Shown here: positions 2,963 through 22,230 of the stretch, in pieces | Layout of the letters: every line of letters starts with the position of its first letter | How positions within the stretch are numbered: position 1 is the first letter of the stretch | Source: a virus | Length of the DNA stretch: 23,440 bases | Virus genome (UHGV): UHGV-0099579 | Direction: 5' to 3' (one strand) | The notes under the pieces: model-generated | The model's input: only the letters and a program-made list of their open reading frames with translations | Database searches by the model: none | What the model was told of the DNA's origin: nothing | Translations under genes and position numbers: made by a program

Positions 2963-3310
2963 TTAACTCAGTGAAACAGTGGTTGAAACTGACGCACCGG
3001 TATCGGTACGCATCCCGGTAATATCGACATACATCTCGCCAGCGTCGCCGGCCTCAAAGCTGATGGATGTAAGCCTGATGCGCGGTTCCCACTTCTGGAT
3101 AGCCGAATAGCACGCCACCATAATTTGCAGCCTGAGCGCCGGGTTTTGCGGCATATCAATCAGCGCCGACAGAAGCGAGCCATATTCACGACGCATCACC
3201 CGCGAGCCGACCGGCGTCAGCAGAATATCGCGCATGCTCTGGCTGATATGCTCGGTATCGCTGATGCCAAGGCCGGTATTTCGGTTCATCCCCTGATAGC
3301 GCGCCGTCAT
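2963..3310 (-). CDS. Baseplate wedge protein (P2 gpW-like, GPW/gp25 family), 115 aa
   Basis: ORF translation MTARYQGMNRNTGLGISDTEHISQSMRDILLTPVGSRVMRREYGSL... closely resembles P2 gpW; ATG overlaps the V stop. Confidence 0.9.
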   Translation of the reverse strand: MTARYQGMNRNTGLGISDTEHISQSMRDILLTPVGSRVMRREYGSLLSALIDMPQNPALRLQIMVACYSAIQKWEPRIRLTSISFEAGDAGEMYVDITGMRTDTGASVSTTVSLS

Positions 3311-3942
3311 AACGGTGCCCCCGTTTGCCCGCCGCTGTCGCCCGGGTGTTTATGGGTGTGGAGTACCTTGCCATTAGACGACAGTGACCCGCCGGTATGT
3401 TCGATATTGCCGCTCATCTTGCCGCCTTTCTGCACCTCAAGCGTCGCCGTCGTTAGCTTATTGGTGCAAATCACCTCCGGGGTGTCGAGGGTGATACTGG
3501 TCGAGGCTTTCACCAGTACCAGCGGTACGGTTGCGGTGATGGACTCCGATGCCGTCACGTCGGCCGTTTTTATGCCGCTGACCGTCAGCGCGCCGGTTTC
3601 GGGCTCGTACTCAATGACCGCACCATCAGGGAAAGCCACATGCCACGCATCCGCCGAGGCAGACGGGGCGGGGTTATCGTCGGAGAAAATACCCGGCAGC
3701 ACGAAAGCGGTATCAAGCTCGCCACCGATTGCCAGCAGCAGAACCTGCTCACCGACCGAGGGAGCCCACCACGTCCGCGAACGACCGGCGCGGGTGGTCA
3801 GCCAGTTCAGCCATGTAGTCTGGATCCCGCCGCTTTGTACGCGGCACAGCCCCTGCACAGTATCGACCTCAGTCACCACGCCTGAGCGGATGAGGTTGCG
3901 AATGGCACGTGCTAACTCTTGAATGGTGTTTAATGTGTTCAT
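3307..3942 (-). CDS. Baseplate spike/assembly protein (P2 gpV-like), 211 aa
   Basis: Translation from the first ATG (3942) gives MNTLNTIQELARAIRNLIRSG...HTHKHPGDSGGQTGAPL, typical of gpV; the ORF-track start at 3948 is a TTG two codons upstream. Confidence 0.9.
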   Translation of the reverse strand: MNTLNTIQELARAIRNLIRSGVVTEVDTVQGLCRVQSGGIQTTWLNWLTTRAGRSRTWWAPSVGEQVLLLAIGGELDTAFVLPGIFSDDNPAPSASADAWHVAFPDGAVIEYEPETGALTVSGIKTADVTASESITATVPLVLVKASTSITLDTPEVICTNKLTTATLEVQKGGKMSGNIEHTGGSLSSNGKVLHTHKHPGDSGGQTGAPL

Positions 3943-3988: not shown

Positions 3989-4006
3989 TGTATGCTCTTC
4001 TACACA
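3989..4006 (-). promoter_or_regulatory. Candidate late-activator (Ogr/B-type) box TGT-N12-ACA upstream of the V-W-J-I-H-G tail operon
   Basis: Sequence tgtatgctcttctacaca has TGT and ACA separated by 12 nt, about 50 bp upstream of the V start codon; P2-family late promoters carry such a dyad. Spacing to the start codon is short, so this is tentative. Confidence 0.35.
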
Positions 4007-4079
4007 ATTCGGTGTGCATTCATGTATCATTTGAGTGTTGACTCATTCGAAAATCACACAAAACATATGGCAGGTAGTA

Positions 4080-4916
4080 ATGAAAAGAACTTCATCTTTT
4101 AGGCGTACAATAAGCAATATGAAATATATTATAGGTATCTTTTTTTTATACTCCGGGCTTATAGTAGGGTTGTCTGTTTATAATGATAACTACAACTCAA
4201 AATTCATGGAGAATTTTCTTGTTAATGCAAATTCTTCAATTTTAGACTTTCTTGTTTTGGGTGTGATTCTTTACTATTTTGAAAATAAAAGGCAAAATAA
4301 AGATGCTATTCACGAACTAATTGAAGATCTTGAAAATCTGGCAAAGCATTCTTCTGCAGAACTGAATATTATGAAGATAAAAATCATACGTCAGTTAAAT
4401 GCTAAAGGAATATATAACATTCAAGTTCCAAGGATTGAACTTGATAAAATGTCCACTATCAAATATTTACATTTTAAAGACGCTGACTTAAACGGCTTGA
4501 ATATGAGCGAATCATACATTAGAGATTGTTCTTTCGATAATTGCACAATTCAAGCTCTAAATATTACAGGCAATAGAGTTAAGAGTGTTAAATTCAAAAA
4601 CTGCAAGCTAAGAAATATTAAGGCATTTAATACATGTTTTCAAAATGTCACTTTCGAAAACTGCAGTTTTGAAGGGGGGTATTTTACAGATAGCGAAATG
4701 AAAAGCTGCATATTAAAAGGATGTGATTTTAAATCCGTTACTTATGAAGGGGCTAACATGCGGAATGCAAATCTATTAAATTCAATTAACATTAGCGTTA
4801 AAGAACTTGTTAAAGCAAAAAACATAGATTATTTAATTTGTGATGAGCAAATTAAAAATGAAATAAGAAAGGAAAACCCAGCAATAAAAATATCGAGAGG
4901 AATAATACGAGGTTAG
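4080..4916 (+). CDS. Membrane-anchored pentapeptide-repeat protein, 278 aa; compositionally foreign cargo gene (moron)
   Basis: AT-rich ORF on the opposite strand to the flanking late genes; start ATG at 4080 preceded by AGGTAG (the ORF-track start at 4035 is GTG); basic N-terminus MKRTSSFRR then two hydrophobic segments (IIGIFFLYSGLIVGLSVY, ILDFLVLGVILYYF); C-terminal half shows 5-residue periodicity (RDCSF DNCTI QALNI ... KNCKL ... FNTCF QNVTF ENCSF ... KGCDF) typical of pentapeptide-repeat beta-helices. Confidence 0.75.
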   Translation: MKRTSSFRRTISNMKYIIGIFFLYSGLIVGLSVYNDNYNSKFMENFLVNANSSILDFLVLGVILYYFENKRQNKDAIHELIEDLENLAKHSSAELNIMKIKIIRQLNAKGIYNIQVPRIELDKMSTIKYLHFKDADLNGLNMSESYIRDCSFDNCTIQALNITGNRVKSVKFKNCKLRNIKAFNTCFQNVTFENCSFEGGYFTDSEMKSCILKGCDFKSVTYEGANMRNANLLNSINISVKELVKAKNIDYLICDEQIKNEIRKENPAIKISRGIIRG

Positions 4917-4970
4917 GGAATCGAACCCAACTCAGTGGGCACGCCCACCTAGACACCAGTCCACCTCTAT

Positions 4971-4997
4971 CGCTGAGTTATATAATAATTCTCAGCG
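4971..4997. terminator. Inverted repeat (7-bp stem, 13-nt AT-rich loop) between the convergent pentapeptide-repeat gene and gene S; possible weak bidirectional terminator
   Basis: cgctgag-ttatataataatt-ctcagcg; no clear U-run, so terminator function is uncertain. Confidence 0.3.
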
Positions 4998-5006
4998 AAT
5001 CCAAAG

Positions 5007-5462
5007 TCAATGGCGTTGACATAAAGCATCCATAATTAAACTCTCAACTTTTTGTAAGTCTGATGAAGAGTATCCGAGCAACGGTCGCGCCTCGTACTGC
5101 ACATCCCGGCTGTTGCGGTTTGGCCGGTCTTTTAGGCCGTACTGATGCACCCGCGCCATGCGCTGCACCTTGCCGGTAAACTCCACCACCGCCGCACTGT
5201 CGCTGCCTTTGGCTTTCATAAAGCGACTGGTGCGCAGTTTGGCGAACATTTCACGTTTAATCCGACCTTTCTTGCTCCTCACCGGCTGGCGCTTTCGTGC
5301 CGCATACGGGGTGCCGTCTGGTGTCTGCTGGCGCTTGATACGCTGTTGCTGACTGGTACGCAGCTTTTTCGCAATCTCAGCCGCCATTTGCCGACGCGCC
5401 GCCGGTGACAGGCTGGCAATCAGACCGGCAAGGCGTTCCTGCAGTGCGGTTAACTCACTCAT
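5007..5462 (-). CDS. Tail completion / virion morphogenesis protein (P2 gpS-like), 151 aa
   Basis: ORF translation MSELTALQERLAGLIASLSPAARRQMAAEIAKKLR...; overlaps the 3' end of the R-like gene. Confidence 0.9.
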   Translation of the reverse strand: MSELTALQERLAGLIASLSPAARRQMAAEIAKKLRTSQQQRIKRQQTPDGTPYAARKRQPVRSKKGRIKREMFAKLRTSRFMKAKGSDSAAVVEFTGKVQRMARVHQYGLKDRPNRNSRDVQYEARPLLGYSSSDLQKVESLIMDALCQRH

Positions 5463-13812: not shown

Positions 13813-15030
13813 TTAGGCTTTGCTATTTATCATTCTGATATAACTAGGCATGCGAGGATCTGAAATTTTATATACCCCTCTGGCAGCCTTTGTAAGGATC
13901 GCTCCTTTATCAGCCCTAGTAAAACGCCCAATATAGTTACTCATGTGATAGTTACTCAATGAAATTCCCGTATCTTCTCGAATTTGGGTAATCCATTCTT
14001 GAATGGTAAATTTATTATCTTTGAATTTTGCTGCTGCATAAAGTATTGATGGATAAATATCAGTTCTGGATGAAGTAACTGCGTTCTCATAGTCTCTTTT
14101 AAGTTGTCCCTCGGTGTTTATTACAGCTCGCTTCAAAGCTTCAGGAAGAATGTCGGAATTTACTTCGCTTTTACCAGATGATAAAGCTATATCTGCAGAT
14201 TCCTTTCCTATAAGATGTGTAAAATATGGAAAACCATTGCTAATTTCAACTATAGAGTTTTTAACTTCACGACTAAATGTTATACCCAAGCCATGCTCGC
14301 CAGTCTCAATTATTTCATGTAAATATTTATCTTCAATTCGAGAGAGTTGAATTTCATGGAGGCATCTGTTCACAGAAGGATGACCTGCTATCAACGAAGC
14401 ACCGTCACTGGAAATGCCAACTAACAAAATCTTCAAAGGACTATTGGAATCACTAAGTTGTTTAACAAACTCAGCGACATCATGCTTAACTTCATCACTG
14501 ACAACATCAAATTCATCTATTAAAAGTATTGCATTCAATTCTTCAAGCGCAAAACAGGCTTTACTTGGAGTAAGGTCTTCTTTTTCTATCGTGATTTTCT
14601 CTTCGGCAGAAACGTCCGCTCTAAATAATTTCAAAACATTAAGCCCAATACCTGCTTTTTTGGTAGTCTCTCTTTTATTTGCGGCATATTCACTATCAAT
14701 AAATATAGCTGGCCTTGCAATTATATCTTTGAATTTTGTTTTTTTATCACATCGCACTACAAAAATGTTACTAGGTAACACACCTTCATTTTTCCCTCCC
14801 TCTAAAGTTGATAAGGCGAGCGAGCTTTTCCCAATCCCTCTCTCTCCATAAATCATGCAATGCTTACCATCAGTAGTTAAGGTGTCGAGGATATGTTCCA
14901 CCTCGTTATCACGCCCTTTCAAATGGGTAGGTGCCTCAATAGGTTTAGACGGTGTAAAATATAAATCAACATTTTTAATTTTATTTTTTTTGGCTTTAAA
15001 ATTACTGAATATACTGCTGGTAGTTGTCAT
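13813..15030 (-). CDS. AAA+ P-loop ATPase (ORC/Cdc6-like or STAND-like fold suspected) with winged-helix-like C-terminal region, 405 aa; AT-rich cargo gene between portal and cos
   Basis: Walker A GERGIGKSSL and Walker B LLIDEFD are visible, preceded by the ...LKGRDNEVEHILDTL... helix typical of AAA_16/ORC-like NTPases; first ATG at 15030 (the ORF-track start at 15048 is TTG); by eye much more AT-rich than the flanking phage genes; flanked by terminators on both sides. Confidence 0.8.
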   Translation of the reverse strand: MTTTSSIFSNFKAKKNKIKNVDLYFTPSKPIEAPTHLKGRDNEVEHILDTLTTDGKHCMIYGERGIGKSSLALSTLEGGKNEGVLPSNIFVVRCDKKTKFKDIIARPAIFIDSEYAANKRETTKKAGIGLNVLKLFRADVSAEEKITIEKEDLTPSKACFALEELNAILLIDEFDVVSDEVKHDVAEFVKQLSDSNSPLKILLVGISSDGASLIAGHPSVNRCLHEIQLSRIEDKYLHEIIETGEHGLGITFSREVKNSIVEISNGFPYFTHLIGKESADIALSSGKSEVNSDILPEALKRAVINTEGQLKRDYENAVTSSRTDIYPSILYAAAKFKDNKFTIQEWITQIREDTGISLSNYHMSNYIGRFTRADKGAILTKAARGVYKISDPRMPSYIRMINSKA

Positions 15031-21882: not shown

Positions 21883-21891
21883 GGAGCAGTA

Positions 21892-22230
21892 ATGAAAAAG
21901 TTTATATTTGCGATAGTCTGCATTGCACTTTCTTCCTCAGCCATAGCCGCTGAGAAGTTTAAAGAGATAGACGGCGCTGCATATGGTGACAAGTGGCCTC
22001 TAACCTTTGAAAAGGCAAAGGTATCATGTGTTAACCGTGCTTATGCTTTTGTGTATGACATCAAAACTGATGATAGATATCCTCTGAATGGCATGGCGGT
22101 AGATGCTGTTAAATCAGGAAAGCTGGAGGGGTCTAACTTAGATGACGTATGGAAGGATGACCCTGAGTATGACGGCGTTAAAATTTCAATTTCACCGGTG
22201 ATTGATGCCGCTACAGCCCTTTGTAATTAA
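21892..22230 (+). CDS. Small secreted/periplasmic protein with signal peptide, 112 aa; cargo gene in the lysogenic cI-int operon
   Basis: GGAG RBS; N-terminal signal peptide MKKFIFAIVCIALSSSAIA followed by AEKF; two Cys in the mature part; lies between cI and int where 186/P2 have no gene. Confidence 0.7.
   Translation: MKKFIFAIVCIALSSSAIAAEKFKEIDGAAYGDKWPLTFEKAKVSCVNRAYAFVYDIKTDDRYPLNGMAVDAVKSGKLEGSNLDDVWKDDPEYDGVKISISPVIDAATALCN

Follow-up and report, generated by a model that had tools for sequence, protein, structure and literature searches.

What is an AT-rich gene doing between two tail genes of a P2-like prophage, on the strand opposite to both of them? The question is raised by a 23,440-nucleotide stretch of viral DNA (UHGV virus genome UHGV-0099579; hereafter the window, by which we mean the whole stretch), a PSP3/186-type P2-like prophage of Escherichia coli. 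An open reading frame (ORF) at 4080..4916 on the plus strand, with an ATG start and a TAG stop at 4914-4916, encodes a protein of 278 amino acids between the tail completion gene S (5007-5462, minus strand) and the baseplate assembly/spike gene V (3307-3942, minus strand). This gene is optional prophage cargo, as seen from its foreign base composition, its presence in some prophages and absence from others, and its replacement by unrelated genes. The most reasonable guess for its role is the exclusion of other phages. The mechanism that we favor, tentatively and with somewhat less than even confidence, is that of a membrane effector expressed in the lysogen and directed against other phages, whose second helix would provide an oligomeric ion path and whose basic repeats would serve as the sensor or gate.

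The gene is already annotated and catalogued, without an assigned function. The RefSeq coding sequence (CDS) call in a 100%-identical E. coli chromosome is the same ORF, the product is listed as WP_115196335.1 (‘pentapeptide repeat-containing protein’), and the protein belongs to PHROG 12514, where function is likewise unassigned. The window is 99.6-100% identical to phage vB_EcoM-613R3 and to the prophage between rplS and yfiB of strain VG888-46E9. Its S-V spacer measures 1,063 bp, has a guanine-plus-cytosine (GC) fraction of 0.323, and holds the cargo gene as its sole ORF; GC runs at 0.29-0.34 along the gene versus 0.55-0.62 in the flanks. On the V side lies a TGT-N12-ACA dyad (TGTATGCTCTTCTACACA, 3989-4006), a candidate late-activator site of the V promoter. 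The dyad is centered about 55 nucleotides upstream of the V start codon, between V and the cargo gene, its layout matches that of P2, in which the pV activator site and the start of V transcription are annotated, and it is also present in the Klebsiella, Salmonella and Enterobacter loci. Because the dyad is placed as in the P2 V promoter, the cargo gene lies exactly in the gap that has the end of the S operon on one side and the promoter of V on the other.

An earlier interpretation made from the letters of the window alone (the sequence-only reading) had placed an AT-rich gene of opposite orientation between the end of S and a candidate V promoter, and the ORF, base composition and dyad all agree with this description. 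The same reading took S and V to be adjacent in P2, which is not the case: the P2 annotation places orf30 in the same S-V position, a nonessential gene of 261 codons on the opposite strand with 35% GC. Moreover, the orf30 region is one of three recognized horizontal-transfer sites of P2-like phages (PMC3091744). The position of the cargo gene is therefore not unusual, since P2 orf30 occupies the slot and the slot is a documented transfer site; the sequence-only reading was right to see membrane-anchored prophage cargo and wrong on the adjacency of S and V in P2. P2 orf30 resembles the window’s gene in slot, opposite orientation, AT-richness and occurrence as a single gene of similar size, and it too is nonessential and lacks an assigned function. 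It differs in that there is no sequence similarity (BLASTP E 0.38), the PHROGs are distinct (2407 vs 12514), and P2 orf30 has neither a Pfam domain nor the tRNA-like element described below. We rejected homology to P2 Orf30 on the BLASTP value and the different PHROGs.

Few carriers of anti-phage genes have been mapped as well as P2-like prophages, and recent attention has focused on the old/tin and Z/fun slots, with the S-V slot little noticed. The latter is a true swap site in E. coli, at which six cargo types and an empty state occur. We surveyed 70 E. coli genomes with S and V at 90% nucleotide identity or above, of which 60 rows are listed and 59 are informative, one listed row being left out as a partial match. 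The slot is empty in 25 of the 59 informative rows and holds one of the six cargo types in the other 34. The window’s gene fills 12 rows (14 genomes carry it in all), a second allele that is just 53% identical fills four, and a HIT-domain protein together with a hypothetical protein (locus L092) fills seven. The remainder comprise six rows with a 287-residue protein related to PD-T4-7 (PADLOC E 1.7e-9), three with two small hypothetical proteins (L091), and two with a 347-residue hypothetical protein encoded on the late-gene strand (L089). The PD-T4-7-related protein, annotated simply as ‘hypothetical protein’, is found at positions 943-1806 of locus L090 (E. coli PKF8, NZ_CP156813.1); PD-T4-7 itself is a validated defense gene. 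Of 5,426 complete E. coli genomes, 14 carry the window’s gene, as does one of 50,697 phage records, and S and V are only 68-100 bp apart in PSP3, EtG, Midge and Yersinia phages.

The sequence-only reading had also proposed looking for homologues at the same position in other P2-like prophages, and these were found: in prophages of Klebsiella, Salmonella, Enterobacter and Yersinia, as well as in IMG/VR contigs, the slot is filled by proteins with 52-82% identity to that of the window. This recurrent slot cargo, a strongly constrained membrane pentapeptide-repeat protein, spans at least five enterobacterial genera. In the Salmonella locus, identity to the window is 86-97% for the neighbors W, V, S and R, with the cargo protein just 53% identical. 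Furthermore, the last ~15 codons of S (window 5007-5060, compared with loci L003 and L088-L092) differ with each cargo type, and also in PSP3 where the slot is empty, and the remainder of S is conserved. Because the C-terminal codons of S change with the cargo, exchange probably occurs by recombination inside S and V. Cargo swapping seems to bring the S C-terminus along. Related genes also travel outside any P2-like phage, as a 339-residue variant that is 64% identical and carries an N-terminal extension of ~60 residues is encoded on a Citrobacter metagenome scaffold (L009:5001-6020; also L027), between a SRAP (YedK-like) gene and umuDC-dinI. This variant adjoins tail-fibre genes of another prophage type near purB. 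Taken together, window positions ~4007-5006 are best explained as a cargo cassette that entered the orf30 slot by horizontal transfer.

The gene is real and under strong purifying selection, judging from pairwise ratios of nonsynonymous to synonymous substitution (dN/dS) of 0.05-0.15 across its length; synonymous sites are near saturation even between proteins that are 81% identical. Constraint is distributed unevenly over five segments. The basic N-terminus (K2, R3, R8, R9 and K15) and transmembrane helix 1 (residues 15-34) make up residues 1-34 (4080..4181, plus strand, as for all segments), and helix 1 shows a mean pairwise identity of 42%; M14 is invariant and serves as the annotated start in some homologues. 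Transmembrane helix 2 (ENFLVNANSSILDFLVLGVILYYFE, residues 44-68, 4209..4283) is the most conserved part of the family, with 87% identity and dN/dS of 0.01-0.06. It is followed by a linker (residues 69-117, 4284..4430; 67%), by the pentapeptide repeats (residues 118-238, 4431..4793; 55%; net charge +3, isoelectric point (pI) 8.5), and by a C-terminal helical cap (residues 239-278, 4794..4913), which is the least conserved segment at 41% and has dN/dS of 0.2-0.6.

This architecture agrees in most respects with what the sequence-only reading had proposed. The basic N-terminus, which carries five lysines and arginines, and the two hydrophobic segments (~residues 15-34 and 44-68), both hydrophobic enough to span a membrane, bear out its description. 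Its five-residue periodicity is borne out by a hydrophobic autocorrelation of 0.35 at lag 5 and 0.41 at lag 10, with negative values at most other lags, and by three Pfam models above their cut-offs: Pentapeptide_4 at 60.4 bits (cut-off 38; E 1.8e-16), Pentapeptide at 37.1 (cut-off 20.2) and Pentapeptide_3 at 36.4 (cut-off 27), where membership was defined by the gathering thresholds of PF00805, PF13599 and PF13576. An AlphaFold2 (AF2) model built from 26 homologues (predicted local distance difference test 85, predicted template-modeling score 0.70) has a helix at residues 15-34, a single long helix at 40-87 that carries helix 2 through to residue 87 of the linker, a helix at 93-108, and a small helical cap at the C-terminus. 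Between them, a short strand recurs every five residues from 118 to ~235, giving the predicted right-handed quadrilateral beta-helix that had been anticipated. The count of about 17 repeats was too low, as the domain contains ~22-23 pentads. Since five basic residues lie at the N-terminus and the inter-helix loop, of which ~5-9 residues would face the periplasm by AF2 and topology inference, has zero net charge, the positive-inside rule would make the protein an inner-membrane hairpin with both termini inside and the repeat domain in the cytoplasm.

The same reading went astray in likening the protein to the DNA mimics Qnr and MfpA. According to this explanation, a membrane-tethered mimic of the Qnr/MfpA/McbG kind would bind gyrase or another DNA enzyme; the resemblance in fold, however, is common to the whole class of pentapeptide-repeat proteins. 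Qnr, MfpA, AlbG and McbG are soluble, acidic DNA mimics, whereas the window’s protein has two membrane helices and net-positive repeats. By a count of charges in the sequence, which is not a surface map, the repeat domain carries a net +2 to +8 with pI 8.2-9.5 in 26 of 26 family members, against net charges of -1 to -5 for MfpA and EfsQnr fragments counted in the same way. The NCBIfam models for Qnr (28.3 bits vs a cut-off of 240) and MfpA (27.9 vs 360) score far below their thresholds. Finally, across at least 661 clusters the membrane module at the N-terminus nearly always comes joined to repeats, which sets these proteins apart as a separate family. We consequently regard DNA mimicry as highly improbable, and the charge of the repeat domain would fit nucleic-acid binding or membrane-proximal binding better.

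The separate family is a large one. At E<=0.001, a profile of residues 1-117 retrieved at least 661 clusters, each counted by its 50%-identity representative, from a collection of 1.84 billion proteins; a word-indexed protein search with the same N-terminal 117 residues gave no match. Pentapeptide repeats follow the N-terminal module in 82 of 88 sampled members, and the named members are all called ‘pentapeptide repeat-containing protein’ and nothing more. The family is therefore large, distinct and uncharacterized, and is defined by two membrane helices, a helical linker and pentapeptide repeats. A SLATT-like identity for the N-terminal module was rejected, as it produced one weak PADLOC match in one of 26 members and no match to Pfam SLATT at E<=1. 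Within helix 2, N49, S53 and D56 are invariant, even in a Paenibacillus relative that is 27% identical, and D56 is nearly invariant in the wider set of 88 sequences. Because their spacing is i, i+4, i+7, these three polar residues share one face of the helix.

The closest characterized protein is HalA of the Hailong system (PDB 9nyi; NCBIfam NF051894), which gives the best NCBIfam match (E 1.3e-11). As summarized in one review, HalA is a tetrameric channel that is kept closed by oligo-dA made by HalB, and HalA alone is toxic (PMC13434031); a second paper (PMC13586616) attributes to HalA both pentapeptide repeats and a potassium-channel-like domain. The match to the window’s protein is confined to the repeat domain and reaches 44.3 bits vs a cut-off of 250, over profile positions 22-130 of 338. 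In HalA the repeat match falls at chain residues 82-156 of 371, whereas here membrane helices at 15-68 precede repeats at 118-238, and the membrane part is a plain hairpin, unlike that of HalA. Membership in the HalA family was rejected on score, domain order and the absence of HalB. HalA nevertheless offers a precedent for a repeat domain that gates a membrane effector through a nucleic-acid ligand. In addition, the literature lists pentapeptide repeats among the sensor repeats of bacterial NLR-like defense proteins.

The cargo gene may also be controlled independently of its neighbors. A candidate promoter at 4001..4030 on the plus strand, recognized by consensus match only, consists of a -35 element TACACA, an 18-nucleotide spacer and a -10 element TATCAT, and would start transcription near 4037. 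The block ACATTCATGTATCATTTGA of this site is kept in the Klebsiella locus, and TATAAT or TGTAAT stands at the equivalent place in Salmonella and Enterobacter; in all three loci a good -10 hexamer is found at the same distance. The -35 element (4001-4006) overlaps the ACA half of the V dyad, and this geometry, shared across the Klebsiella, Salmonella and Enterobacter loci, suggests reciprocal control of the cargo and late genes. Because the -35 element lies on the ACA half-site, we speculate that binding of the late activator could silence the cargo gene late in lytic growth. Downstream of the gene, an inverted repeat (TCGCTGAG-N13-CTCAGCGA, 4970..4998) lies between it and S; it has no T-run on either strand, and a scan found no canonical intrinsic terminator after the cargo gene.

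Against this background, five observations lead us to favor a membrane effector that acts against other phages from the lysogen: the exclusion genes carried as morons by P2, the richness of P2 hotspots in defense systems (PMC13586616), a slot-mate resembling PD-T4-7, an independent orientation with a promoter-like site, and an extremely conserved helix 2 with an intramembrane aspartate. The cargo gene would be transcribed in the lysogen from its own promoter, pointing away from the late operons, and its product would be inserted in the inner membrane with the repeat domain in the cytoplasm. There, acting as a single protein, it could exclude other phages or abort their infections. Helix 2, nearly invariant and bearing the polar stripe N49/S53/D56, would oligomerize into an ion-conducting pore, the effector. 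The basic repeat domain would be the cytoplasmic sensor or gate: it would keep the pore closed and release it upon a change in some ligand, perhaps a nucleic acid, that the phage supplies or depletes. The tRNA-like RNA antisense to the gene in cis would probably limit expression or activity of the protein.

Exclusion of other phages is the function of all the characterized morons of P2, namely old, tin and fun(Z). Together with PD-T4-7 they share with the window’s gene an AT-rich composition, a single-gene format and a fixed place between conserved genes of P2; they differ in lacking homology to it and in being in, or described from, other slots (A-Q, G-FI). The cargo gene is best filed with two known kinds, namely P2-slot cargo and repeat-plus-membrane effectors in the manner of HalA, with an RNA companion that was unexpected. 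If a single-protein defense of the channel type is correct, it would supply a function for a family of at least 661 uncharacterized clusters, and would extend the Hailong principle, in which a repeat domain gates a membrane channel, to a design without a partner.

Several observations weigh against this proposal. First, most of the other slot cargoes are likewise uncharacterized, and guilt by association with a hotspot is weak evidence. Second, selection on the repeat domain is purifying rather than diversifying, unlike that expected of a sensor in an arms race. Third, the cytoplasmic placement of that domain comes from the positive-inside rule. Fourth, the domain order is the reverse of that in HalA (as judged for HalA from the position of the repeat match), and the annotation of the prophage, with a single CDS between V and S, includes no HalB-like nucleotidyltransferase at any position. 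Fifth, PADLOC holds no model for the cargo protein, yielding only RTasSLATT at E 0.0027 in one of 26 members. Finally, the literature searched for pentapeptide repeats in combination with P2-like phages, anti-phage defense, superinfection exclusion or abortive infection yielded no study of this family.

The arguments from context apply equally to a simpler form of superinfection exclusion that would not kill the cell. Repeats anchored in the inner membrane, and lying in the cytoplasm or close to the membrane, might block genome entry without the protein conducting ions. They could bind the ejection or tape-measure proteins of the incoming phage, for instance, or a host factor in the inner membrane that it needs, and a small membrane anchor joined to a protein-binding solenoid would suit such a task. 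HK97 gp15 and P22 SieA are prophage exclusion proteins that follow this logic. However, the strongest conservation lies inside helix 2, where an intramembrane aspartate and the accompanying asparagine and serine exceed what a passive anchor needs, and a periplasmic loop of ~5-9 residues would expose nothing to an incoming tail tip. We judge non-lethal exclusion to be unlikely.

The breadth of the family speaks for a role unrelated to defense, as the two-helix pentapeptide proteins also occur in Paenibacillus chromosomes without obvious prophage context. A function in lysogenic conversion or phage fitness, such as a membrane protein for ion or stress homeostasis that benefits the host, an accessory part in lysis timing, or an anti-defense factor that the phage itself uses, might account for a gene that adjoins lysis and tail genes, and a Vibrio phage pentapeptide-repeat protein has been proposed in the literature as an anti-defense factor. 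Yet the gene is optional among near-identical prophages and hence dispensable for lysis and assembly; it lies on the strand opposite to the late operons with a promoter-like site of its own, and it shares its slot with the PD-T4-7-like gene. A role of this sort, too, seems improbable to us.

The second component of the cassette lies at its S end. Positions 4903..4974 on the minus strand form a tRNA-like element of 72 nucleotides that runs antisense to the cargo gene at its 3´ end and covers its last three codons and stop codon. Read on the minus strand as ATAGAGGT-GGACTGGTGTCT-AG-GTGGGCGTGCCCAC-TGAGT-TGGGTTCGATTCCCTA-ACCTCG, it has a predicted fold in which an acceptor-like stem of 5 bp is combined with a small D-like arm, a hairpin of variable sequence that shows compensatory changes, and a T-arm (GGTTCGATTCC) with a TTCGATT loop. 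The central hairpin varies in length, has loops of 4-9 nucleotides, and is without an anticodon loop. In an alignment of only 10 distinct sequences, the cloverleaf-like fold leaves 88.8% of cells paired, compared with 51-59% in slid controls, and five of its pairs show compensatory changes. G·U pairs number ten on the minus strand and one on the plus strand. ARAGORN calls no transfer RNA (tRNA) at the element and Rfam gives no match at E<=1; on these two negatives we rejected a real tRNA or a known RNA family.

The element stands beside every enterobacterial homologue examined, including that in the non-P2 Citrobacter context, and in the loci examined it is absent beside five other types of slot cargo, from P2 and PSP3, and from the Paenibacillus loci. 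A general feature of the S-V slot is thereby ruled out, given its absence from other cargoes, P2 and PSP3, and so is a common E. coli repeat, since among 5,426 E. coli genomes the element occurs solely in the 14 that carry the gene. With the variable hairpin set aside, copies of the element share 66-91% identity with that in the window, compared with 63-80% for the coding sequence. Because some homologues lose the stop codon, such that the ORF crosses the block in differing frames, it is at the nucleotide level that the element is conserved. Its resemblance to tRNA is reflected in pattern searches, as genuine tRNA or transfer-messenger RNA genes account for about half of what its core pattern matches in IMG/VR. 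Some real tRNAs align over the full length of a covariance model built from the element, at ~20-23 bits (for example a tRNA-Met in L071 and a tRNA-Thr in L034), other tRNA-Met matches covering model positions 9-65 only. In one IMG/VR contig (L028:4819-4909; IMGVR_UViG_2627853930_000003), a 14-nucleotide unit, ATCGAGGTTAGGGA, is present in three tandem copies. This unit corresponds to the acceptor/T-arm side of the element, and the triple copy hints at slippage or recombination.

A promoter-like site for the element is found at 4982..5010 on the minus strand, with a -35 element TTGACT (5010-5005), a 17-nucleotide spacer and a -10 element TATTAT (4987-4982). With 10 of 12 consensus matches it is the best promoter-like site in the region, and its -35 element is the conserved AAAGTCAA block, which contains the stop codon of S. 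In nine tabulated loci the -35 is TTGACT, the spacer is 17 nucleotides, the -10 has A at position 2 and T at position 6, and the site lies 3-6 nucleotides upstream of the fold. Loci L084 and L088, read by eye, have TTGACA and, equally spaced, a -10 of CACCCT. Transcription is predicted to begin near 4975, which is also where the 5´ end of the fold lies, and would give an RNA of ~70-100 nucleotides. These characteristics make it probable that the element is a small antisense RNA gene of the cassette, transcription being predicted from the promoter-like site; the alternative is a tRNA-derived relic of recombination. The element is also a marker for tracing movement of the cassette between prophage types, and a co-travelling, tRNA-like antisense element poses a directly testable regulatory hypothesis.

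The layout recalls lambda OOP RNA and cII, as well as toxin-antitoxin systems of types I and III, in which a short RNA from a promoter just downstream runs antisense into the 3´ end of a gene, as predicted here. As in the type I and III systems, the partner protein is potentially harmful to the membrane. The present RNA differs from all of these in its tRNA shape and canonical T-loop and in that its transcription is predicted, and the protein is far larger than type I toxins. This comparison raises the possibility that protein and RNA form an addiction module, with a protein toxin and an antisense tRNA-like antidote that would stabilize the cassette or prophage, and with defense as a secondary outcome. 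The conserved promoter-like site and structured antisense element in every enterobacterial locus examined, whatever its surroundings, speak for such a module, as does a protein that is membrane-active by design and the toxicity of HalA on its own, as summarized in the review cited above (PMC13434031). Conversely, 278 residues is far above the typical size of a type I toxin, the element may act at the DNA level as a recombination relic, and the Paenibacillus relatives lack it. An addiction module thus appears to us quite unlikely.

We consider more doubtful still a two-part, self-guarded system, in which an inner-membrane channel, gated by its pentapeptide repeats and working like HalA, would be kept silent or closed by a short-lived tRNA-like RNA, made antisense from the conserved promoter of the cassette, in place of an oligo-dA supplied by an enzyme. 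An infecting phage that shuts off host transcription, or that degrades or sequesters tRNA-like RNAs, would remove the guard RNA, and its loss would open the channel and abort the infection. If this were true, an RNA-guarded channel would be of a new kind, with the logic of abortive infection by type III toxin-antitoxin systems.

Elsewhere in the window, a second cargo gene occupies the classical old/tin hotspot, where it adjoins the portal gene (13813-15030, minus strand). RefSeq annotates its 405-residue product as an nSTAND1 domain-containing NTPase, and PADLOC gives it a weak match to the defense candidate PDC-S59 (E 7.7e-8). As additional accessory genes of the prophage, the RefSeq annotation of NZ_CP128581.1 places a DUF2511 gene at ~21890-22230, between the CI repressor and the integrase, and a DinI-family gene with several small hypothetical genes between the NTPase and the replication gene A.

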